DNA of 64,000 bases from IMG/VR virus record IMGVR_UViG_2627853687_000001, positions 28,861 to 92,860 of that record; one strand, given 5' to 3'. This DNA is from a virus (Duplodnaviria; Caudoviricetes). Below are positions 3,229 to 30,470 of the stretch, one piece after another. Below the pieces are notes generated by a model. The model was not told the origin of the DNA. It saw only the letters and a program-made list of their open reading frames with translations, and searched no databases. Within the stretch, counting starts at the first letter, position 1. Every line of letters starts with the position of its first letter. The position numbers and the translations under genes were made by a program.

Positions 3229-4308
3229 ATGCCTAACTTCAGCGATGTAGAATTTGAGAAGCGTTATAAACATTTTCTACAGGTACAAAAAGAGTGGCTG
3301 ACTCTCATCACGGACAACCAGATTTTTAGCGATAGAAACTCCCTGGGTGAAGAATGCCGCCCGATTGGCTTTATCACTGACAAGAAAGCCTTTAAGCGTG
3401 CCGAGCACCTGCTGGCTGACTGGCAGAGCTTTGCAGACCTGGCAGAAGAAAAGCGCAAAGAGCGCTCTATCGCGATCACCACGAACCTCTATCTGCCGGT
3501 TCCTGTACTGATCACCAATCCAAAGCACGTCACTATTAACCGCTTCCGTGCAACGGCCACCGCGAACCACACCCGCGAAGATATCCTTAAGCGTTATGAG
3601 AAGCAGATAAACAAGCTGCGTAAAGTTCCTTTTGCTGCCGGTGCAATCATGTCGCTGGAAGATGAAATGAAAGGGATTGAAGCTGCAGCGCCAGGCGCAA
3701 TGTACCGCGCACGCACTAGCAACTATTCTGATATCCAAGTAACAGCGCGCTATACCGATGATAAGAAAGATGAAGGTGAATCTTTCCGCTATGGCGCACA
3801 TGGGATGCTGATTTACGGCGACAAGCTGGATAAAGAGCGCGATATCAAGCTGAACGTTACGAGTAACGGTAATTACACGTCGCCATACGATGCTATCTCA
3901 CCCGTACCATGTTCAATCCTGCCTAATGCCAAGCTGTACACCATGGAAGACGTGGAATATAGCAAGGTGCTGGCCGCGCAGCGTTCCTCAGTGGCGTACA
4001 CCGTAAACACACGCCGTGCTCAGTTTGAGAACAGGGCAAAGGCTAAGATTGCGAAGGCAAAAGACGCAGCGGAAGCGCGTCTGTTTAAAGCTGAAATCGA
4101 AGAAAACCGCGATTTGCTGGAGAAGCTGGAAGCCTACGACTGGGCGCTCCTGGATAAGAAGGTAGCCGCTGGTGATACAGAACAGTTGACGATGCCTGAA
4201 ATCCGTAAGCGTTACGGCGGAGAAGAGCCTCGCGCCGGAAAGAATATGCGTAACATGTACAGCCTGCTGCGTGAACTGGAAAGTAACCTGAAAAATCAGG
4301 ACAAATAA
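3229..4308 (+). CDS. c1: C1 primary repressor homolog
   Basis: Blocks RPIGFI, LYLPVPVL and SPYDAISPVPCSILPNAKLY.MEDVE resemble P1 C1. Convergent with pacB next to lox/cre as in P1. C-terminus is longer. Confidence 0.8.
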   Translation: MPNFSDVEFEKRYKHFLQVQKEWLTLITDNQIFSDRNSLGEECRPIGFITDKKAFKRAEHLLADWQSFADLAEEKRKERSIAITTNLYLPVPVLITNPKHVTINRFRATATANHTREDILKRYEKQINKLRKVPFAAGAIMSLEDEMKGIEAAAPGAMYRARTSNYSDIQVTARYTDDKKDEGESFRYGAHGMLIYGDKLDKERDIKLNVTSNGNYTSPYDAISPVPCSILPNAKLYTMEDVEYSKVLAAQRSSVAYTVNTRRAQFENRAKAKIAKAKDAAEARLFKAEIEENRDLLEKLEAYDWALLDKKVAAGDTEQLTMPEIRKRYGGEEPRAGKNMRNMYSLLRELESNLKNQDK

Positions 4309-9888: not shown

Positions 9889-10239
9889 TTACCATGTCAC
9901 GTGCGAGCGTCTGAATAATGCCGTCGTAGTGCTGTTTTGGCGCAGCTTCCCCGTCGTCACCCACGAAAACCAGCCCCATAGCCGTACACCTTTGGTGATA
10001 TCCACGCTGTAAGCAAATCTGGGAGTTGATTCGAAGTGCGCCACCAGCTGTTCTGCACGCCATGCGAAGCACACGCCACAGATTTTGCTGAGCTCAAGCG
10101 TCACTGTGCCGCCAACGAGCATAGTTGAGGTTTCGGAACCTGCGCAGGAATTACTGTGTTTGCATGAGATTGACGTGATTTTGCAGTTATCAGCACGCCA
10201 GGCCAGCTGAGCCAGCCAGATAATTTTCTGCATTTCCAT
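9889..10239 (-). CDS. hypothetical protein (possibly frameshifted with 9842-10072)
   Basis: TAATG overlap with the upstream gene at 10239. Confidence 0.45.
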   Translation of the reverse strand: MEMQKIIWLAQLAWRADNCKITSISCKHSNSCAGSETSTMLVGGTVTLELSKICGVCFAWRAEQLVAHFESTPRFAYSVDITKGVRLWGWFSWVTTGKLRQNSTTTALFRRSHVTW

Positions 10240-10823
10240 TACACCAGCTTCCAGTCGTTTGCGAGAATATCGGTAGAAGCCGGCGCCCAGTCAGAGACGG
10301 TCAGCTGTTCTGCATCAATGAGTAGCAGCTGGGGCATCTGCGTGACAGTAGCCTCCGGGTTGCAGTCAAAGTAACGAGCCGGTACGCCGTACATGTCTGT
10401 CCCGTTCAGTGTGGCGCGCATCATGCCTCTGCTGAGGCGCAGATATACACCCTTCCCCCACGCTGCCCGCGCTACCTTGCAGCCCTCTGACAGCCATAAC
10501 TGCGCCACGGCCAACGGTGCGTGCTCCTGCCTGAAATTCAGTTCGCCGGTATTAATCATCGCTTCGTTGCGCAAGATCAGATCGTTGAGCTTAATCAGCG
10601 CAACACAGGCGGCGTGGTTCAGTGTTTCGCCATGACCGGTCATTGTCAGGCCGCTTTTACTAATAATGGCTGCATAACCGTCATTTTTGGTCTCAGACGT
10701 ATCTGTAATGGTATATCCGAGGCGTTCAATCACGGCCAGGAGTGCCATGTAGTCGCCTGCATAGTCGGCTTCTGCATCTGCAATCATGCCGATGGTTGCG
10801 TTTAACTGTTGAGCGGTCATCAT
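10239..10823 (-). CDS. DUF2829/Tad2-like domain protein with N-terminal extension
   Basis: C-terminal GCKVARAAWGKGVYL...WAPASTDILANDWKLV matches the DUF2829 signature. Confidence 0.8.
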   Translation of the reverse strand: MMTAQQLNATIGMIADAEADYAGDYMALLAVIERLGYTITDTSETKNDGYAAIISKSGLTMTGHGETLNHAACVALIKLNDLILRNEAMINTGELNFRQEHAPLAVAQLWLSEGCKVARAAWGKGVYLRLSRGMMRATLNGTDMYGVPARYFDCNPEATVTQMPQLLLIDAEQLTVSDWAPASTDILANDWKLV

Positions 10824-12611: not shown

Positions 12612-12675
12612 TGGTGCAGGTTGGCGGAATTGAACCGCCGACAATGGAACACTCTACCGACTGAGCTAAACCTGC
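12612..12675 (-). tRNA. 64-nt tRNA-like gene lacking the anticodon stem (pseudo-tRNA or decoy)
   Basis: GCAGGTT TA GCTC AGTCGGTA GAGT G TTCCATTGTC GGCGG TTCAATT CCGCC AACCTGC A CCA: intact acceptor, D and T arms plus encoded CCA, with only 10 nt where ~22 are expected. Confidence 0.8.
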
Positions 12676-14541: not shown

Positions 14542-14838
14542 TTAGAACAGTTTTAACGCCGCTATGACTAGGGCGGCTACAGTGACAATCATCACAACAT
14601 TCAACAGTACAGACGGCACTTTGATCTCGCCGGTCTCATACTCTGCCTGCGTCATGCGGCCCAGGTAACTGTGCGAGACCAGCACTGCGTTTTCGTCAAA
14701 GCTCAGCGTAACCCGGACATTCTCCAGCACCTGACGGGATACCTGTCGCGTGGCCAGCTGGACCACACCGGATCGCATTTTGCCGTTGTCGCCCATGTAA
14801 CAGACCGAATGGTAATGAAATGGCTTATTCAGGCCCAT
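14542..14838 (-). CDS. small protein with C-terminal TM helix
   Basis: 98 aa, hydrophobic C-terminus, coupled to the upstream ORF. Confidence 0.7.
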   Translation of the reverse strand: MGLNKPFHYHSVCYMGDNGKMRSGVVQLATRQVSRQVLENVRVTLSFDENAVLVSHSYLGRMTQAEYETGEIKVPSVLLNVVMIVTVAALVIAALKLF

Positions 14839-15356
14839 CAGCTGATAACTACCCAGTCACAGACGCGCATATCTTCAATGCTCATATCATGCATTTCTGT
14901 AGTGCCGTCCGGATGAGTCAGTTCCAGCACGTCACAGCCTTCATGCTCCTGCTCCAGCGACACAAAATAACCCGGCTTCCACGCTTCACGACGCATCAGC
15001 AAAGCCGGATCTTCTTTCATTTTCAGCAAGGCCTGGTCATAGCTGCACGCAATGGCACCGATACCAATTTTGCTCAAAGATTCGATCTGTGCCGTAGTCA
15101 TGCGTCCGCGTCCTTCTGTTAATGATTTTCTCAAGATGTAGCTAATCCCCTTCACGCCGCCGAAATAGTTCAGCTGGCGGTTGCTCATGCCGCTGCGCGT
15201 CATAAGCTCCTGCTTAGGTACTTTAAAAATGCCGACTTCCATAGCCATGTCGGCAAAAACCGAAAGCCCCCGGCCTAAGCTGTCGCGCGTTTTATTGCGG
15301 CGCGCATACTGCTCAAACGTGGGGCATCCGGTAAAAAATTGCGCATCAAAAAGCAC
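14838..15356 (-). CDS. protein with C-terminal DUF2829/Tad2-like domain
   Basis: SYDQALLKMK...MRREAWKPGYFV...SIEDMRVCDWVVI. Confidence 0.65.
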   Translation of the reverse strand: MLFDAQFFTGCPTFEQYARRNKTRDSLGRGLSVFADMAMEVGIFKVPKQELMTRSGMSNRQLNYFGGVKGISYILRKSLTEGRGRMTTAQIESLSKIGIGAIACSYDQALLKMKEDPALLMRREAWKPGYFVSLEQEHEGCDVLELTHPDGTTEMHDMSIEDMRVCDWVVIS

Positions 15357-17151: not shown

Positions 17152-20100
17152 TTATGCGTTTACAATATCGCTGCGTAATGCATCGAGATCATGGGAAGAT
17201 GGGATAAGCCAGGCGGCTTGTGTGAACTCGTTTCCGGCTACCGGATCTTCTTCAAAGTTCCAGAATTTCGCGCCGTATTTCTCTTTGATGAGGTCACGCA
17301 CGGCTTTACGCTTGAGTACCGGCGTGTCGCTGGTATCCGTCAGCACGTAGGCACCACCAGCCGGGAAGTCGATTTTAAAGGTGCGGTTCCTCCACTTGCG
17401 TGAAGCCACCAGCTCCTGCTCGTTTTTCATGACCTGGAAGCCATCGGACTGCTTCTGTACCTGTGCGGTGCGCACGGTCGTTGCCGCTGCCGCTGCAAGT
17501 CTTTGAGCCTCATCACGGCGGGCCTTCACAGCATCAGGTGACAGCTTGCCGGTAATCATCCCTTTGTAGTCATCCCACGTTACGGCGTAATCCCGGTATC
17601 CGCCTTTCTCGATCTGCTCCAGCCACGCATAAACCTCATTTAACCGGCTCATAACGGCGGAGGATGAGGTAAATGTTTCGGCACTGATCGCTGCTTCATC
17701 GAGCGCGCCCAGTGAAACGCCGGCACGCAGATAAACTGCAGCAGGCGATTCGGTAATGGTGGCCGGTCGAGTAATGTCAGATTGCGCATCAAATTTCGAC
17801 TTCACCAGCAGCAATGCAATCCCTGCCTGGCTGTCACGCTCGCTCATCTGGCGGAACTGCTGCAGCGCGGCGGCGGCATACTGCTCTGTCAGTGACCTGA
17901 TTGCCTGCATCTTGCCGTCGGCCATCTCGTTACGCAGCTGGTCGAATATCACTTCATACTCATTACGGTTGGAGAAACCTTCCATGCCGTTACGGAACTG
18001 GCGAACACTGATCGAGTTGCTCCAGTAGTAACGGTCCTGCCCTGCGCCCAGGAAAGCGGCGTGTGCTTCTTCATCCGTTGCGCCGGTCATCGTCCGCTTT
18101 CTGGAGTCGTTTGCTTCAAACTCAGCCACCAGCCGCTTAAAGACTTTGACCACTTCCGCCATGCCCGCCTGCTTCCCGTAAGCCTGCAATGCCGTGTCGT
18201 AGTTGCGGCCAAACATCGCCTTGAAGAAGCCTTGCGCGCTGTAGATGTTGTTATCCACGCTGTACTGATAAAGCTCGCGCTTCAGCTGCTCGTCGCTGTG
18301 GTCCGGATACAGCCACGCTTCAGCCGGTCGCTCTTCGCTGGCGCTGATCGTGCCGCTGAGGTAAGCCAGTTTCAGCCTGCCGTCGCTGTCACGGTACAGC
18401 CATCCGTCTGTGCGCACATTCAGGACGCCCGCGTGAATGGCCGCGTAGAAGTCAGCACGGCTCAGCCCGTCCGCCAGGTCTATCGGATCGATGCCCTTCG
18501 CTGCTGTCTGGAGCGCTTTTGCCTGGTCACTGGTGATATCCACGCGGTCGCCCACCAGCGCAGACGGCATTTCAGCAAAGCCACCGACATTCGGACCGGT
18601 ATAGCAGCGCAGCGGCTTGTGGATCAGCTCAACCTCAACTGTATTTTTCTCCGGGAAGAATTTGCGAATCTGGAATACGCCCTTTTCTTCGCGGTCATCG
18701 TTGAGCCAGATTTCATAAGTCGCGCCAATTCGCAGCAGCTGGCCATCAGGCAGTTTCATGTACTGCTCCGGGGCGCGCAGCACGTCCGGATCGACTTCCA
18801 GTGCGCCGGACTTGATTGCGCGCTCTACTTCCCCGCGGGAGCGCTTGATGGTGCTGGCCGCACTTTTGGAGCGAGTCAGCGCCTTGCGTGCGCCGCCCAG
18901 CTCCTGCTCCAGCTTCTTCTGCTTCGCCAGGCCATCACGGAGTGCAGCACGCGCTACGCGACGGTCCTGACCGCGCCACTGATCCGCTGACCGTTTGCCA
19001 TACTTCTCAACTTCGAGGTTATAGGCGGCTTCAGCTTCGGTGACGTCCTCGCGATAGCCATCAATCTCGCCGTTGATCGCATCAAAGGCAGCAGACAGCT
19101 TGGTAATGTTGTCTTCAAGCACTTCAACGGGTGTAGCAGCCGCAACGCTTGCCTTCAGGTAGATGTCCAGCGCGGCAGCGGCTTCACGCTCGGCCTGCTG
19201 GCGGTCCGCTTCACGCTTCGCTTTCAGCTGTGCATCCACGCGGGCGCGGCGCTCTTCCGGGTTAGCGGCCAGCAGCAGGCTCTGCTCTTCTTTGGACTCA
19301 ACATCACCGTTTTTAATGCTGGAAACGTCAGATTTCATGACGTCGTTGATCCAGTTTTTCTTGCGCTGCAGCGTCTCCAGGCGGAACTCGTCAAATGACC
19401 CTTTGCCACAGTAGTAATGCACGCGCATGGTGTCGCGCTCGGAGCCCACGCGGGCGCCGCGTCCGTTACGCTGGTCGATACTGGCTGGCGTCCAGGGGAG
19501 TGTCAGATGGTGCGTATCAGCGGTGCCTTTGTGCAGGTTAATCCCCACTTCGGCCTTTTTGTTGCAGATGATGATTGGCGTACGGCCTTCGTTGTAGTCG
19601 GCGGCGATCCCTTCCATCCCGGCCAGCGAGGCGTCACTCATTGCGGCCTGATAATCCTCATAGCGCGCCAGTTCTTCGTAGTACTTATCCCATGCGCCGT
19701 CCTTAAAACTGCCGTCCGCTTTTTCCACCGGCTCAACCGGTTTCTTCACGGGTTTAACCTTCACGCCGGACGCTTTACTGACTGTCGTGGCATTGATAAT
19801 GCCTACCTGCTGCTCTGTCAGGCCCAGGGCGCTGGCGATAATGCGGCGCAGCTTGTTATGCTGGGACTTCTCATCCATGAAAATGATCTGCTTACCGTCC
19901 GGCAGGCCTGCCTTCAGGTTCTCAATCAGCGCGGCATACTTTGGCGGTACCGGGTGAGAGACATTTTGCATACTGATACCGGCAGCAGCGATTGCGTCCA
20001 GTACCTGCTGTTCCAGCGTGTCGCTCACCACTAGCTCCACGACGCCGCCGCGATCCTTCAGCGTGGTTTTGACTACCTTGCTGGTGCGCGTATCGGTAAG

Positions 20101-24100: not shown

Positions 24101-25798
24101 TTGGCTACTAAAAAAAAGGCATCGTCTGTTTTAGGAGCACTTAGGCAGGCATTCCGGGGCGCGACGACAGAAGCACCGCAAAGCCTGGCATGGACTAACG
24201 GGCAAAACGTGGTTGTCTCTCGCTCCGGGCTGGCGGCGATGGCATACAACGAGGGAAAGGCGGGGGAAATGACCTCTGCCGGTGACAGTCTTTACCTGGG
24301 CGCGGAGTTGCCGCTGGACCGGCTGCAGCGCTATGCGATTCTGGAGGAAATGGCTAACAGCCCGACGTGCTCAGCCGCGCTGAATATCCACATTGGCCAC
24401 GCACTCGCGCCGGACAAAAAAACCGGCCTGGCGTTCTCTATCGTGCCGGTTGATCCGTCCGACGCAGAGGGCGCGGCACGGGCCAAAGAGCTACAGGACG
24501 ATCTTGGCGCAATGATTAATCGGCATCTGCCGTCGCTGGCTATGACCATGGCGATTTTCGGCGTCTCTTATGTCCGCCCCTATGCCCGAACCGGCAAGGG
24601 GATCACCAGTCTGGAAAACAGCTATTACTCGTTGCCCTACTTCATTCAGGAGTTTTATAAAGGTGATCAGCTGGTGGGCTTTGGCGGAGATTATGTGCTG
24701 TCACCTGACACCCATACCCGCACGCTGTCTACGCCGTGGTCCCTGGTCCCGATGAAAAATCCGTACTGGACGCCCACGCGCAACGTTCAGCCGGTGACGT
24801 CCGGGAATCGCGGTTACTCTTTGCTGTCGGAGGAAGAAGATAAGGAAGTTTCGGAGACGCAGAACTACGGCACCAGCTTCCTGGCGCATGCCTATGAACC
24901 CTTCCTGAATCTGGTCGGCGCGCTGAATGCCCTGAAGGCAACGCGCTACAACGCAGCCAAAATTGACCGCCTGATTGCCCTTACGACTAACTCACTCGAT
25001 CCGGTTGTGGGCGCGAACTACACCCGCACTGTGTCGCAGACGCTCAAGCGCCACGGCGAAGCGCTCCAGAAAAAAGCGGTGAACGGTAACACCATGCCTA
25101 CCGTGATGAACCATGTGATCCCGGTGATGGGTGATGGCAAGAACGGGATTACGATTGATACGCAGTCGATACCCGCCGACATTAGCGGCATTGAGGACGT
25201 CATGTTTCACCTGCGCCAGCTTTGTGCCGCGCTCGGTATCGACTCAACTATGCTGGGCTGGGCCGATCAGATGGCAGGCGGACTGGGTGAAGGCGGCTGG
25301 ATTCAGACGGCCATTCAGGCGGCACTCCGTGCGCAGTGGCTGCGACAGGGTGCGCAGGAGATGATTTACCGACTGATCGACATTCACCTGGCGTTCAAAT
25401 ACGGCAAGGTGTACCCGGTCAATGACCGCCCCTATGTTGTGCAGTTCAACTCAATGAATACCGCCATTCAGGAAGAAGAAAGCCGCGAAATGGACGCCCG
25501 CGCCAACTTCATTACTCTGATGGTGCAGGTTATGGACGCCTTGCAGGCCAACAATAAGCTGGCGGAGAACGACACGTTTATGCGCTACCTGTTCGGCGAT
25601 CAGCTTAAGATGGACGGCAGTACGCTCGACAAGATGCTGGCGGAGTTTGAGAAAAGCCGGAAGAAGGCGGATGCGCAGGAGGATGAAGGCGGCGGCGGCA
25701 TGATGAACGAATCCGCCCCAGATGGGACCGATCCGGCCAGCTGGACACACGCAGAGCTGGTGGCGTTTGCGCGCTATGTGACGGCACCCGGTAACTGA
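24101..25798 (+). CDS. prt: portal protein
   Basis: 565 aa, divergent from darB as in P1, portal-like helical protein; TTG start. Confidence 0.85.
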   Translation: MATKKKASSVLGALRQAFRGATTEAPQSLAWTNGQNVVVSRSGLAAMAYNEGKAGEMTSAGDSLYLGAELPLDRLQRYAILEEMANSPTCSAALNIHIGHALAPDKKTGLAFSIVPVDPSDAEGAARAKELQDDLGAMINRHLPSLAMTMAIFGVSYVRPYARTGKGITSLENSYYSLPYFIQEFYKGDQLVGFGGDYVLSPDTHTRTLSTPWSLVPMKNPYWTPTRNVQPVTSGNRGYSLLSEEEDKEVSETQNYGTSFLAHAYEPFLNLVGALNALKATRYNAAKIDRLIALTTNSLDPVVGANYTRTVSQTLKRHGEALQKKAVNGNTMPTVMNHVIPVMGDGKNGITIDTQSIPADISGIEDVMFHLRQLCAALGIDSTMLGWADQMAGGLGEGGWIQTAIQAALRAQWLRQGAQEMIYRLIDIHLAFKYGKVYPVNDRPYVVQFNSMNTAIQEEESREMDARANFITLMVQVMDALQANNKLAENDTFMRYLFGDQLKMDGSTLDKMLAEFEKSRKKADAQEDEGGGGMMNESAPDGTDPASWTHAELVAFARYVTAPGN

Positions 25799-25959: not shown

Positions 25960-26220
25960 TCAGCTTATTTTCTTTTCCGGCTTCGTGGCCTGTTTTGATA
26001 AAAGAAACACGTCTGATCTATTCGCCATTATATCGGGCTTATTGGCACAGAGAGGACATGCCCTGACACCCGTGTAATTTATCCTTGCTACGCTAAGCAC
26101 CTGATTTAACGTGTAGCAGCTGCTGATAAAAGCACGGTCCCATTCAGCGGGCAGCTGCGGACAGTCAAGCCGGTGCAACAGTAACCCGCTGTTAGCGTGG
26201 TCATTAACGTATAATTTCAT
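25960..26220 (-). CDS. small putative Zn-binding protein (H-x3-C...C-P-x-C)
   Basis: MKLYVND...LLHRLDC..LP...ACPLC; paralog of 26832-27311. Confidence 0.6.
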   Translation of the reverse strand: MKLYVNDHANSGLLLHRLDCPQLPAEWDRAFISSCYTLNQVLSVARINYTGVRACPLCANKPDIMANRSDVFLLSKQATKPEKKIS

Positions 26221-26831
26221 GGCCTTATACATGCCATATCCTATTGCTGTGTGTGACAAAATCACCATTTAAAATATGAGCCAGTTCCGACTGTCCTTAG
26301 CCTGAATTAGCAGCTTCCGAGTCTATGCGAAATTTATATAACTGCCTTTTTCACATTAGCTCATCTGCGTTAACAAAAGTTACCACTTTCCTTTTAATTT
26401 AAAAAACATTTTTTGACGGGCTATATATTTGCATTGACCTAGCGAAAGTTATTTCGCAATTGAATGAAAGTCATTAATAGTCGCTAAAGTGCTGATATTC
26501 GGCTTGCACTGATCAAATATGTCGCAATATCAGAAAATCCGTTCGGAATTGTTACGCGTAAAAAAAACCATACAAACCTGAGTAAATTCGACGTTTGTTT
26601 GTAGACAAAAAATCTTCAACAAAAAATATGACAATATAAACGATAAGTTTATCTAATTTACTGAATAATTTTTTCAGCGAAATACATATAACGGCAATAA
26701 TACATAAGCGTAATTATTAGGCATGATTACAAATGATTAATCTCAGGCACAAAAAACCGCACGCGGTTAAACCTGCATGCGGTTATATTCCGGCTGCGTT
26801 TAACGGCTTTGCGCTGCCGTATCAGATGCAA

Positions 26832-27311
26832 CTAATTAGGCCAGTCATAAACAAAGTGCTGCACGGCCACGGCTTTCAGACCACTTTTAATTTTAACGAC
26901 CTGCTGCGGTCCGGGCTGCTGCTCAGCAATGGCAAGTTTCATTATGGCTGCGGCAGGCTTAACGGCTGGCATCTTATCTGATTCACATTTTCGTGCCGCT
27001 ATCGCCGGCGCTTTCTTTACTGTGGGCGCAGGCCTCTTTGCCTGTTCGGCAACGGGCTTATTGCTGAGGTTTGCAAACTGCTCTTCACGGGCATCAGTCT
27101 TTTCGGGGTTTTGTTTTTGCAAACAGACCGGACAGCGCTCTGTATTTTTATGATGCACAACAGCTACGGTCATTGCCTGCTGAGACGTATACAGGGTGCC
27201 GATAAATATCCGGCTTTCAGGGGACTTCGGGAGCAGATGACAGCTTTCGCGGTGCAGCAGCGTGCCACTTTCATAATGAAATGCGACATAATATTTCTTT
27301 GCTTTTAACAT
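26832..27311 (-). CDS. putative Zn-binding protein with low-complexity tail
   Basis: KKYYVA...LLHRESCHLLP...RIFIGTLYT..QA..VA...CPVC. Confidence 0.65.
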   Translation of the reverse strand: MLKAKKYYVAFHYESGTLLHRESCHLLPKSPESRIFIGTLYTSQQAMTVAVVHHKNTERCPVCLQKQNPEKTDAREEQFANLSNKPVAEQAKRPAPTVKKAPAIAARKCESDKMPAVKPAAAIMKLAIAEQQPGPQQVVKIKSGLKAVAVQHFVYDWPN

Positions 27312-27537: not shown

Positions 27538-27795
27538 TCAGTGTAGCAGAGAAATTACCTGCCAGTCTGAGGAAAGAATATCGTCAGGCGTGGGATCGTA
27601 AAAGAATAGCGCGCCGGATTCGCCCATGATGACAAATATCATCTGTCTGTCAGCGTCGTTTTGGGTAAATACGTGAACGGGAGTGCGGCCCCATTTTGCA
27701 CGACGGCAGATAGCACTTTCAGTCTGACTGATGGCAGTCATAGCGCGGTCAAAACGTAATGTCGCCGGGGATGGCGTGTCGGGGGTATCAGTCAT
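27538..27795 (-). CDS. stand-alone DUF2829/Tad2-like protein
   Basis: FDRAM...CRRAKWG...YDPTPDDILSSDWQVI; strong SD AAGGAG. Confidence 0.75.
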   Translation of the reverse strand: MTDTPDTPSPATLRFDRAMTAISQTESAICRRAKWGRTPVHVFTQNDADRQMIFVIMGESGALFFYDPTPDDILSSDWQVISLLH

Positions 27796-27928
27796 GAAAT
27801 GCTCCTTGTGCGAAAAGAAGCGTCACTACAGGAGGTTCCAATCTCCGGGTGGTGACGTTGACAGGGTTGGAACTACCGGTGCACAAGAAAACCGGCCTAC
27901 CCGAAGGTAGCCCCACCAACGCCACCAT
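27788..27928 (-). CDS. ash-family leader peptide / C4 target region
   Basis: MVALVGLPSGRPVFLCTGSSNPVNVTT is ash-type; its stop overlaps the next start (ATGACTGA). Confidence 0.65.
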   Translation of the reverse strand: MVALVGLPSGRPVFLCTGSSNPVNVTTRRLEPPVVTLLFAQGAFHD

Positions 27929-27958
27929 AGATACGCCCGGAATAATCCGGACGTGGTA

Positions 27959-28035
27959 GCGCCGAAGGCACTATGTGCCAGTTCTCATGCTTTTACAGGG
28001 TTCCAAGCCTGGCCGCTGAATCTCTTCTGCGGCGC
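27959..28035 (-). ncRNA. C4-type (P1 C4 / P4 CI) antisense RNA
   Basis: GCGCCG/CGGCGC closing stem; loop TTGGAAC complementary to downstream GTTCCAA (27867-27873); promoter TTGAAT-16-TATAGT at 28040-28067. Confidence 0.75.
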
Positions 28036-28134
28036 GCACACTATATCTGCCGTGCTGATAAATTCAATATGTCTCATGTGAAATTAACCACTGGTCATTA
28101 GATCCAGACGAGATTAAAGAATCGCTAACCCCAT

Positions 28135-28225: not shown

Positions 28226-29227
28226 ATGGAAGCACTCCGCACGGTAACGGATCGTTTTTCCCTGATTGATAAAATCCGCCGCTTTACTCCACAGAATGAC
28301 CGCAATTACCTGCTGCGATCGGTGCGCGAAACGTTCGCCAGCCCGGAAACTCAGGAGCGCATTCAGCTGGGGGAAATGTTCGGCTATTACGGCCACGGAC
28401 GTCGCGCCGCATATTACGCGAAGACCGGACGGCTAAACCTGCCGGAATTTGCAGTCGTCATGATTGACGGTAAGCCGGTCACGCTGGAAAACGTACCATC
28501 AAACCGCACGCTGGAGGCCAGCGTGGATGATAACGGCATCGTGACTCACATTCAGGAGATTCTGGACACCGAGCCCGGCAACATCGTTGACGGCATGAAC
28601 CGTTCCCGCGCTGGTGGCTGGTCATGGGCGACTGGCGGCGACGATAACGCCATTTCAAAAGTGACAAGCTTTCACGGCTTCGACTATGTGACCAATCCAA
28701 ACTATATCAGCCAGGATCACCCCGCTCTGCTGCTGGAATCGGCCAATGAACGTGCCGACGCAATGCATGCGGGGCTAATGGAAAAGGGGTATTCAGAAAA
28801 TCAGGCGGCTGACATTATCCAGCACTTTGAAACCCTGCGTAGCCAGACGGCCATGCTGGAATCGGCGGATTCTTCGCTGCTGGAATCGGCGCTCCACATC
28901 GAGCACGGCAAGCGTCTGGAGCTGGAGGAACGTCTGCGCAGCGTGCAACTGATGATCGAGAGTGCAGGCACCGTGGCAAAGGCGCGACGTCGGATTATGA
29001 AGGATGCTCTGGCTAACATGCCGCTGTTTTTAAGTAAAGCCCAGCAGACGGCATTATGCCGTATGGACACGCCTGAAGACGCGCAGATTGTCGCTGCAAT
29101 GTTGGAATCAATCGGCACAAATGCGACGGCAACACTGCCAATCGGATCAGCCCACCAGCACACATTACCGCAAACGCGCCCGCCAGCTGTGGACTCAACA
29201 CCACTGCTATGGATTAACCCAAAATAA
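28226..29227 (+). CDS. pro: prohead protease
   Basis: GYYGHG (His), GGWSWA (Ser), GFDYVTNPNY; follows the portal in P1 gene order. Confidence 0.88.
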   Translation: MEALRTVTDRFSLIDKIRRFTPQNDRNYLLRSVRETFASPETQERIQLGEMFGYYGHGRRAAYYAKTGRLNLPEFAVVMIDGKPVTLENVPSNRTLEASVDDNGIVTHIQEILDTEPGNIVDGMNRSRAGGWSWATGGDDNAISKVTSFHGFDYVTNPNYISQDHPALLLESANERADAMHAGLMEKGYSENQAADIIQHFETLRSQTAMLESADSSLLESALHIEHGKRLELEERLRSVQLMIESAGTVAKARRRIMKDALANMPLFLSKAQQTALCRMDTPEDAQIVAAMLESIGTNATATLPIGSAHQHTLPQTRPPAVDSTPLLWINPK

Positions 29228-29304: not shown

Positions 29305-29611
29305 TTGATCCTTTTTCGGATCGCGTTTATCATCCGCGCTCAAATTCAGTTTGACGACTGAATGAGAAGACGAAAAAAAATCGCCTGTTGACGCAGACGA
29401 TTTTTAAACAACTTTGTGTGGTCTTCGACAACCACACCGGCGTTGTGCCGTTCAACTTCTTTGGTCGGAAGTTGCCCTTAATTCCCCGTAGCAAGGTACC
29501 CCTAGCAAGGAACCGAAATGATTAGAGCCACAAAAACAAAAGTGACAACAATCACCGACTGGAAGGAACCAAAAGCGTGTCTATAGTAGCTAATAGCGCC
29601 GATCCCGGCAA
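29305..29611. promoter_or_regulatory. repL leader with sense promoter, hairpins and antisense promoter
   Basis: Plus strand TTGATC-17-TATCAT (29305-29333); minus strand TTGCCG-17-TACTAT (29611-29583); bidirectional terminator-like hairpin at 29373-29405. Confidence 0.65.
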
Positions 29612-30470
29612 CACTTTTCCCGCATATCGCTCAAATAACGAGCACAGATCTATCCGAATTTCCGGCTTCAATCTCACTCACATAATCGAACTTTCCCCAC
29701 TACCAAAATCACTTACACGCGTTTTGAAATTTGCCTGCAACCTGGCTGGTTCAACATCTGACTTCATCATCGTTAAGTCACTCAGAAATCTGGCTGAAGA
29801 TGCGGGGTGCAGTATCTCTACCGTTCAGCGCGCTTATCGCTTAGCCGTCAAGCTGGGTATCCTCAGCTATGAAGAACAGCGAGACGCTAAAAATCATAGC
29901 GTCAGCAAGCCCAGTAAATACAAATTCACCAGCAAAGCGCTGTCGTTTGTTCGTGCAAGTCTGGATGCACTGAAAGAAGCCAATCTGGAGCCTTCCGGAC
30001 GTCAAACTATTGTCAGGAAAGTTGTTGCTAAAGTATTCTTTAAAAACGATTTTTTTCACGTCATCCCTAGTCAAAATGAACAGGCCACCCCTGGTCAAAG
30101 TGACCAACAAGAAGTAAGAGATCACTCCAGTAAAAGAAAAATATTAAATGTGGAACCATCAAATTCTGACACGCTGGAAATGACTACAGACAAGCCTGAG
30201 ACGTCAGCACCTGCTAAAAAGTTTGGTTTTTATCAGAATACACAGAAGCAATTGGCAGCCGCATCGTCAGCTGCACAGAGCGAACGTCGCGCAGAAGAAT
30301 TTCAGCGCAAAGGCGGAATACTGCATGAAGCGTATCAGGCGTTGAAGTCCAGTTTTAAAACTAAGTCCACTGGTGATCGAAGCCCAAAAAGCCGCCGCTA
30401 TGTTGACTCGTTAAGCGGCGACTACTCAAACGTTGACTATGCGATCCCTGAAGGCTGGCGCGGCTGTTAG
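29577..30470 (+). CDS. repL: RepL lytic replication initiator
   Basis: SGFNL...NLA.STS.F.I.KS...LAEDAGCSISTVQRA...V.LGIL...Y.FT HTH and C-terminal AIPEGWRG match P1 RepL. Confidence 0.88.
   Translation: MSIVANSADPGNTFPAYRSNNEHRSIRISGFNLTHIIELSPLPKSLTRVLKFACNLAGSTSDFIIVKSLRNLAEDAGCSISTVQRAYRLAVKLGILSYEEQRDAKNHSVSKPSKYKFTSKALSFVRASLDALKEANLEPSGRQTIVRKVVAKVFFKNDFFHVIPSQNEQATPGQSDQQEVRDHSSKRKILNVEPSNSDTLEMTTDKPETSAPAKKFGFYQNTQKQLAAASSAAQSERRAEEFQRKGGILHEAYQALKSSFKTKSTGDRSPKSRRYVDSLSGDYSNVDYAIPEGWRGC

Follow-up and report, generated by a model that had tools for sequence, protein, structure and literature searches.

What does a C4 antisense RNA control in a genome that holds neither icd nor ant, the genes that follow this RNA in phage P1? 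The question is raised by a 64,000-nucleotide (nt) stretch of DNA, hereafter the window (positions 28,861 to 92,860 of IMG/VR record IMGVR_UViG_2627853687_000001), in which an immI-type switch stands directly before the gene of an 85-amino-acid (aa) protein of the Tad2 (DUF2829) family. The source record is a complete viral genome of 92,860 bp, of which the window covers the larger part. Comparison with phage P1 (tblastn) gives 21–63% identity for the window proteins, in an order that is largely P1-like, and the closest relatives at the DNA level (megablast) are circular plasmids of ∼87–95 kb, of which five come from Pantoea and one carries the label Acinetobacter. Given these circular plasmid relatives, the genome is, on the sequence comparisons, that of a distant P1-like phage-plasmid of Pantoea. 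We propose that its immI-type switch has been rewired, with a single Tad2-fold protein as its output instead of Icd and Ant, and that this protein is a sponge; taken as a whole, we hold this proposal to be about evenly balanced between right and wrong.

C4 RNA, its targets and its leader

The promoter, C4-type RNA, targets and Tad2-like gene that an initial annotation of this DNA had proposed are all present where it placed them, and all lie on the minus strand. The elements of the cassette, in 5′ to 3′ order along that strand, are as follows.

28081–28094, minus: operator-like motif CCAGTGGTTAATTT; 13 nt separate it from the −35 element downstream
28040–28067, minus: predicted sigma-70-type promoter, TTGAAT (28067–28062), 16 nt, TATAGT (28045–28040); consensus scan, 9/12 positions
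27982–28046, minus: leader with a1 and b1, upstream copies of the C4 targets; Rfam c4-a1b1 and direct reading
27845–27932, minus: C4 antisense RNA (RF01695), E = 4e-15, full length of the model (1–87)
27835–27841, minus: a2 target UUGGAAC, lying within a hairpin loop (GGAG/CUCC stem) a few nt 3′ of C4
27802–27811, minus: b2 target GCACAAGGAG, which holds the Shine-Dalgarno sequence AAGGAG of the Tad2-like gene
27788–27928, minus: 46-aa 'ash' open reading frame (ORF) across C4 and the leader of the 85-aa gene; an open frame, judged to be no gene
27538–27795, minus: gene of the 85-aa Tad2-fold (DUF2829) protein; no other gene follows the switch in every case

The assignment to the C4 family is borne out by Rfam, where the RNA scores 84.2 bits (gathering score, 45). 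This C4 is the sole copy in the window and in the whole 92,860-bp genome, and three related plasmids likewise hold one C4 each. Taking its ends by homology with the annotated P1 C4, the mature RNA would run from about 27926 to 27848. Two antisense segments lie within it: a′, GUUCCAA (27873–27867), is the exact complement of a1 and a2, and b′ is the hairpin loop UUUCUUGUGC (27890–27881). The initial annotation had placed TTGGAAC in C4 and GTTCCAA in the target; the RNA sense is the reverse, with GUUCCAA in C4 and UUGGAAC on both sides of it.

The heptamer was the antisense contact noticed at first, and it does pair, at 7/7 positions between a′ and a2, but the contact of b′ over the ribosome-binding site had been overlooked. 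Here b′ and b2 pair at 10/10 positions, G-U pairs counted, and the AAGGAG within b2 stands six bases 5′ of the start codon of the 85-aa gene. The b′/b2 duplex has an energy of −13.8 kcal/mol, a value reached by none of 1000 b2 shuffles. Judged from the sequences, the pairing of the C4 loop with b2, over the Shine-Dalgarno sequence, would be the decisive one, and since b2 is the ribosome-binding site, pairing of C4 at this point would block translation.

The 46-aa ORF had been taken for an ash-type leader ORF whose stop overlaps the start of the DUF2829 gene. The overlap is real, the TGA sharing bases with the ATG of the 85-aa gene (ATGACTGA), and is accounted for by conservation of the second and third codons of that gene, but the ash gene is not. 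Against Phage_ASH (PF10554) the ORF scores 23.9 bits, below the cut-off of 26, over residues 1–28 only, and the codons of these residues (27928–27845) are C4 RNA. Five other ORFs start at an ATG inside C4 (at three loci of the survey described below, on the Pantoea contig L044 and on a Leclercia plasmid), and in 5/5 residue 1 or 2 aligns to Phage_ASH position 48 or 49; from this shared register, positions 49–76 of the Phage_ASH model are translated C4. The annotated 5′ end of P1 C4 is the G of the homologous ATG, and by analogy C4 processing would cut inside the start codon of the 46-aa ORF; direct reading finds no Shine-Dalgarno sequence before that codon. We judge the 46-aa ORF to be a conceptual translation of C4 and no gene, and the regulated ribosome-binding site is, on the same sequence evidence, the 85-aa gene's own. 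A translated leader that acts as a coupling device, like icd, was considered and rejected on these grounds. The Phage_ASH-like signal is seen at L040, L042, L044, L051 and L060 (L numbers denote loci other than the window) as well as at 27928–27845 of the window, and short annotated 'ash family protein' coding sequences at C4 loci overlap the RNA gene; the identity of Phage_ASH positions 49–76 with translated C4 bears on the 'ash family protein' labels at such loci.

Upstream of C4, the promoter scan taken alone is at chance level, with 5 sites against 4.7 expected; the −35 element is invariant among the relatives described below and the −10 element is kept in 18/19 distinct ones. In the leader that follows, a1 (UUGGAAC, 28006–28000, minus) lies inside a hairpin loop, and b1 (GCAUGAGAA, 27990–27982, minus) is complementary to the C4 hairpin loop, with a duplex energy of −10.9 kcal/mol. 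The a1/b1 sequences are present and complementary, but the match to Rfam c4-a1b1 (RF03163; 28046–27992, minus) reaches 27.2 bits (E = 1.5e-4) against a gathering score of 46.7. The precursor folds more stably than its shuffles (z = −4.9), and in its minimum-free-energy fold the a1/b1 leader is paired with the a′/b′ part of C4. This predicted pairing suggests that the leader may mask C4 until the latter is cut out.

The motif upstream of the −35 element belongs to a set. The pattern CCAGTGGTTWATTT, with at most two mismatches, occurs at 10 sites in the window against 0.55 expected (609, 636, 1272, 5332, 7383/7390, 14446, 27478, 28081 and 57106, with 7383/7390 a facing pair), and 0/100 shuffles reach 10. 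The copy at the switch promoter is kept in relatives. The motif is probably the operator of a C1-like repressor, whose predicted binding would involve one further gene of the window:

3229–4308: ORF of the C1-like repressor

Beyond the window, one CCAGTGGTTWATTT site adjoins a homologue of ref.

Specificity classes and recurrence of the switch

Conservation of these pairings was followed in the 360 nt upstream of the orthologous gene, with 32 related loci compared with the window (33 sequences, 19 of them distinct). The aligned set is made up of four plasmid records, two genome contigs and 26 of the 27 IMG/VR loci, plus L001; L005, which has the same megablast extent (1–478) and identity (86.0%) as L007 and no annotated coding sequence, was omitted from the 33-locus set. 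C4 is found at or above threshold in 16/16 of the aligned loci that were scanned, and the stretch from C4 to the ATG is free of insertions and deletions in 19/19 distinct sequences.

Across the 19 distinct sequences, 98.8% of the cells in a′/a2 and b′/b2 are paired, compared with 35–50% when the 3′ partner is slid by 1–3 columns, and the covariation score of the two helices is reached by 0/500 shuffles. For a′/a2 alone the figure is 98.5%; the a set shows no variation across the relatives, however, and is therefore uninformative for or against pairing. Change is seen in the b set. Full b′/b2 pairing is kept in 18/19 distinct sequences, and double-sided changes are present in 5/19, UA becoming CG at columns 246/324 and GC becoming AU at columns 249/321; b1 shifts together with these compensatory pairs.

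On this alignment the relatives form two specificity classes of loop and target, related to each other by compensatory changes in the manner of P1 and P7. Type I has the loop of the window and comprises 13 sequences, and type II, with the loop CUCCUCGUAC, comprises six. The b2 target of type II is exactly complementary (GUACGAGGAG) in 5/6, and the same word serves as b1 in 6/6. Cognate duplexes have energies of −13.8 kcal/mol (type I) and −18.2 kcal/mol (type II), compared with −8.6 kcal/mol for the type II loop on the type I b2. When P1 and P7 are aligned, two-base differences, likewise compensatory, are found in each of a1/a′/a2 and b1/b′/b2, and P1/P7 heteroimmunity rests on these differences; P1 and P7 vary in both sets, whereas the relatives described here vary in the b set only.

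Mixed forms of the switch are also found. In L008 a type II loop and b1 are combined with a type I b2, breaking 2/10 pairs (−7.5 kcal/mol), and in L032 a type II b1 precedes a type I loop and b2; by their make-up both are naturally recombined switches. A third variant of b2, GUACAAGGGG, is found in L076. Taken together, the duplexes and their covariation leave RNA gating of the Tad2-like gene well supported.

The pairing of C4 with a DUF2829 gene is also seen outside the aligned set. On a Leclercia plasmid, in a different neighbourhood, a C4 (76.7 bits) stands 57 nt before an 83-aa ORF that resembles P0024, a member of the clade (tblastn: 40% identity, E = 9e-5), and has no Pfam match at E ≤ 0.001. 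On a 95-kb viral contig, the regulatory DNA of which is near Pantoea type II, a C4 (84.4 bits) stands 55 nt before a 34%-identical homologue, with an AAA_21 ATPase gene next. By these matches, C4 is found together with a DUF2829 gene in three lineages and two genomic contexts. Related-locus searches with P0024 and P0015 gave no relatives; a search with P0018 gave two weak loci, L038 and L039, both without C4, and L010, a weak match in an Anaerolineales metagenome-assembled genome, is also without C4. None of these three loci was used further.

The Tad2-fold protein, its proposed role and the alternatives

The 85-aa protein matches PF11195 over model positions 3–73 of 73 (E = 4.4e-6), narrowly above the cut-off, as the initial annotation had supposed. 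Close homologues share 69–81% identity and are all 85 aa long. The clade is small, for among 1.84 billion cluster representatives a profile search turned up no more than 22 proteins at E ≤ 1e-3; the motif C-R-R-x-x-W-G...H is specific to it and invariant. An AlphaFold model (AF2) built from 28 sequences, which supersedes an earlier one from 9 close sequences with a predicted local distance difference test (pLDDT) score of 52.4, has a pLDDT of 88.9. Foldseek ranks 1–24 in the PDB are all members of the Tad2 family (SPO1 Tad2, AcrIIA7, HgmTad2, SptTad2 and ModTad2), with template-modelling (TM) scores of 0.50–0.76 and a probability of 1.00, and the next match has an E value of 0.33. The top matches in the BFVD viral structure library are also Tad2-like. 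The Tad2 fold, on which the first reading of the locus depended, is thus present in the model.

No Tad2 protein was found in the PDB by searches with the single sequence or with 9 sequences, NCBIfam and PADLOC gave no match, and neither megablast nor tblastn found a match in the GenBank phage collection. A weak match to a 'transcriptional regulator' family in PHROGs (E = 0.0056) was not relied on. That Icd might itself be a hidden Tad2 relative was also considered, and was rejected at an hhalign probability of 0.3% against the 85-aa protein.

The protein resembles the known Tad2/DUF2829 sponges (SPO1 Gp34.65, ModTad2, HgmTad2, SptTad2 and AcrIIA7) in its length, 85 aa compared with ∼75–100 aa, in its N-terminal helix followed by an antiparallel sheet, and in its W-G and PSxxDxLxxDW-type motifs. 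It differs in its low identity to the solved members listed above (11–20%), in the clade's own C-R-R-x-x-W-G...H motif and in a Gly in place of SPO1 Asn26. In the portions consulted of the preprint on Tad2 (10.1101/2023.05.01.538930), the ligand residues of SPO1 Tad2 are given as W25, N26, W73 and D79. A profile alignment places W25 on W35 and D79 on D72, both kept, and W73 on Y66. Tad2 proteins, as far as the sources consulted describe them, bind differing ligands in differing pockets.

PF11195 domains are also present at the C-termini of two other minus-strand ORFs of the window, one of 194 aa (10239–10823, 43.5 bits) and one of 172 aa (14838–15356, 25.3 bits), neither with a C4 upstream. 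Three matches are found in each of three related plasmids (E ≤ 0.01; one, in W05, is below the cut-off), two in phage D6 and none in P1.

We propose the following mechanism. One promoter, flanked by the operator-like motif, would give a transcript with the order a1/b1, tRNA-like C4, a2/b2 and 85-aa gene. C4 would be excised from it, as it is by RNase P in P1, and would bind a2 through a′ and b2 through the loop b′, blocking translation of the 85-aa gene both in cis and in trans. Steady C4 would keep the gene silent in a lysogen; in a naive cell the first transcripts would be translated until C4 accumulates, giving an early pulse. The protein would most likely be a homo-oligomeric sponge for a nucleotide immune signal of the Thoeris, CBASS or Pycsar type, and its silencing in the prophage state would spare the host's immunity and avoid tripping sponge-sensing systems. 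We infer excision, action in trans, silence in lysogens and the burst on entry by analogy with P1, and the sponge role, oligomerisation and nucleotide binding from the Tad2 family. That sponges must be made early is argued in the portions of the Tad2 preprint consulted (10.1101/2023.05.01.538930), and the parts seen of a broader study report that, of 84 diverse homologues drawn from three families of sponges, 65 inhibited one or more of the seven systems tested (10.1101/2025.08.24.671296).

In architecture the switch is close to immI of P1 and P7. It shares the RNA family RF01695, the order of elements, the position of b2 just before the first gene and the upstream a1 and b1. The P1 order is Oc4, promoters, a1, b1, c4, a2 a few nt on, b2 and icd; the 30 nt that separate a2 from b2 here compare with 29 nt in P1. 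P1 immI has several promoters, whereas one is predicted here, and a repressor-operator-like motif is found at the promoter in both, lying over the −35 element in Oc4 of P1 and upstream of it here. Cargo and location differ. P1 immI lies between sim and kilA/repL; the present switch lies between prt and pro, on the opposite strand, and is followed by a single 85-aa Tad2-fold cargo, with no icd, coupled ant or adjoining kilA. No homologue of icd, ant1/2, kilA or sim is found among the ORFs of the genome (tblastn against P1, E ≤ 1e-5), and domain scans of the entire genome find no ANT, Bro-N, Rha or AntA domain. The original suggestion of a C4 switch wired to a Tad2-like gene stands, in that icd and ant are not its output here.

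Anti-CRISPR operons with Aca repressors offer a parallel, as in these an early burst of counter-defence expression is ended by a product that the operon itself encodes. The Aca shut-off is by a DNA-binding protein acting on transcription, whereas the one proposed here would work at translation, through an antisense RNA that is processed, can also reach targets in trans and falls into specificity classes defined by sequence.

Several observations weigh against a C4-gated sponge. By sequence the protein only just belongs to PF11195 (27.6 bits; cut-off 25), the profile matches to PDB sequences are weak (E = 0.018–0.057 with the 28-sequence profile), and the phosphate-contacting N26 of SPO1 aligns to G36. 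On the RNA side, the U-rich type I loop still pairs with the type II b2 at −11.5 kcal/mol, and the five type II sequences are akin, so that the two compensatory pairs may stem from one historical event. C4 control is no general need of such proteins, since the genome's two other PF11195 genes are without C4. Few of the genomes sampled from the host genus have signalling defences, SMODS being found in 5/61 and ThsB_TIR in 3/61. In four RNA runs neither reads nor contigs fell on the stretch, an outcome that does not bear on expression. Finally, the 28 other Enterobacterales C4 loci mostly precede antirepressors or regulators, and this usual cargo, together with the lack of a recognisable antirepressor in the genome, means that the cargo here could itself be an antirepressor.

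The main rival explanation builds on this last point. In it, the Tad2-fold protein is the immI effector in the lysis-lysogeny decision, an antirepressor or derepression factor like P1 Ant or Coi, acting on the C1-like repressor. The cargo of other C4 RNAs was surveyed in 151 sampled Enterobacterales genomes, of which 19 have C4, with at least 38 matches; 30 loci were fetched. A Pfam scan covered 36 downstream ORFs, 35 from 28 survey loci and one from the Leclercia plasmid, L047 and L064 being omitted because neither has a downstream ORF of at least 60 aa. The matches are to HTH_35 (3), Rha (3), Ash (3), Ankyrin (2) and Bro-N (2), with single matches to Derepression, AntA, P22_AR_C, AlpA, ORF6C and a Tad2-like family; the single Tad2-like match is on the Pantoea P1-like contig L044, which is L008 and already in the aligned set. 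From these counts, the cargo of C4 is usually an antirepressor or regulator, and the matches to Rha, Bro-N, AntA, P22_AR_C, Derepression, HTH_35 and AlpA speak for such a role here. The C4 beside the Tad2-like gene is moreover the genome's only one, an antirepressor function is otherwise unaccounted for among its genes, and a repressor-operator-like motif stands beside the switch promoter.

Phage D6 provides a further point on that side. Like the present genome, this P1-like phage-plasmid has a C4 switch close to prt, pro and repL, but its order is prt-pro-repL-C4-icd-antirepressor, on the same strand as repL and with a Roi-like antirepressor, and a second C4-icd-antirepressor lies elsewhere. 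The two PF11195 genes of D6 are 16–68 kb from its C4 copies. Against an antirepressor stands the fold itself, since the literature consulted gives no regulator role for this family of small-molecule sponges, and residues of the SPO1 pocket are partly kept in the 85-aa protein. A cargo that is only 34% identical under a near-unchanged switch suits the product of an arms race more than the partner of a conserved repressor. Anti-defence genes of this type are also common in such elements: in its passages on Tad2, a preprint on phage-plasmids finds Tad2-type genes in most of the D6 group and about half of the P1 group (10.1101/2025.09.12.675607). On balance we consider the antirepressor role unlikely, though it is the alternative to be taken most seriously.

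A second alternative, a type I toxin-antitoxin-like or Icd-like module in which the protein harms the cell and C4 is an RNA antidote that stabilises the plasmid prophage, appears quite improbable. It is suggested by the name of orthologues on RefSeq plasmids, 'MW1434 family type I TA system toxin' (for example L001, 5446–5703), by the Tad2-like gene standing in the exact place of P1 icd, which encodes a cell-division inhibitor, and by a layout that is formally type I, an antisense RNA blocking translation of a small protein. The name, however, traces to a bioinformatic listing in S. aureus only, as far as the part of that source seen here shows (PMC6266405), and the same orthologue clusters are elsewhere named 'Thoeris anti-defense Tad2 family protein'. 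A type I toxin is by definition a small hydrophobic or membrane-active peptide with a labile antisense antidote; the 85-aa model is a soluble alpha/beta Tad2 fold, and the hhalign result cited above leaves the protein unrelated to Icd. A single transcript yields both C4 and its target, and C4 is structured and tRNA-like. The structured C4 of P1 is the opposite of a labile antitoxin.

It is very improbable that the cassette is a remnant, placed beside a gene that its C4 no longer controls by an accident of recombination, for although mismatched combinations exist (the 2/10 broken pairs of L008, at −7.5 kcal/mol, and the mismatched b1 of L032), the switch is conserved, with full b′/b2 pairing and compensatory changes in 18/19 distinct sequences, no insertions or deletions from C4 to the ATG in 19/19, and recurrence with DUF2829 in three lineages and two genomic contexts.

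If the switch does gate a Tad2-fold sponge, a more tentative extension, which we think rather doubtful, would follow from action in trans. A resident C4 could silence the sponge gene carried by a same-class relative entering the cell, making the host's signalling immunity a barrier to superinfection. The newcomer would then face defence of the Thoeris, CBASS or Pycsar type without protection, and the resident's host would stay armed. The loop/target classes, the recombinants and the b2 of L076 might in that case be escape variants, and swaps of cargo a parallel contest over host signals.

Genomic setting and significance

The cassette lies between homologues of prt (portal; 24101–25798) and pro (28226–29227). 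In the annotated P1 record prt (17312–19021) and pro (19014–20033) overlap, in keeping with the initial remark that the cassette separates two genes that are adjacent in P1. Conversely, pmgC and bplB are adjacent here, and in P1 are separated by sim-c4-icd-ant-kilA-repL-rlfAB-pmgF. Directly after pro, as in phage D6, is a repL-like gene (29577–30470, plus strand) that shares 36% identity with P1 RepL over 148 aa and matches HTH_36 at 24.7 bits, the cut-off being 25; in P1 the position of repL is beside kilA.

Between the Tad2-like gene and the portal gene are two paralogous minus-strand ORFs, one of 159 aa (26832–27311) and one of 102 aa (25960–26268), with 36% identity over a ∼90-aa N-terminal domain that includes a CPxC motif; an ESM Atlas search with the 159-aa ORF gave no named family. 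Relatives hold the 159-aa ORF, the 102-aa ORF or neither, and L076 has an AAA_21 ATPase in that position. From this varying content, the position looks like a variable accessory slot. In L006 the 85-aa gene is the sole gene between C4 and the portal gene, and the two paralogues are therefore optional. Elsewhere in the window is a tRNA gene (12615–12675, minus; Rfam tRNA, 49 bits).

C4/immI and Tad2 are each already known, and it is their coupling that is new. A literature search found no published link between C4 and Tad2, its scope being the texts of the Tad2 papers and not their supplementary tables, which may list members of the clade. In its passages on Tad2, the phage-plasmid preprint does not discuss the regulation of Tad2 genes (10.1101/2025.09.12.675607). 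More generally, the timing and restraint of counter-defence genes in temperate phages and phage-plasmids are not treated in the parts of the Tad2 literature consulted, beyond the need for early production.

A C4 RNA before a sponge gene, as a switch programmable by sequence, would, if our proposal is right, be a concrete and testable mechanism for a gene that is on at entry and off in the prophage. It would also offer a reason for silencing in the prophage state, in which the host's immunity is needed intact and sponges can trigger Panoptes; in the portions seen of a review, co-expression of Tad2 homologues with Panoptes OptSE gave fewer colonies (PMC13712596). Types I and II would provide natural orthogonal pairs of RNA and target for testing it. 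The finding further marks the immI module of P1-like elements as a portable regulator with exchangeable cargo.

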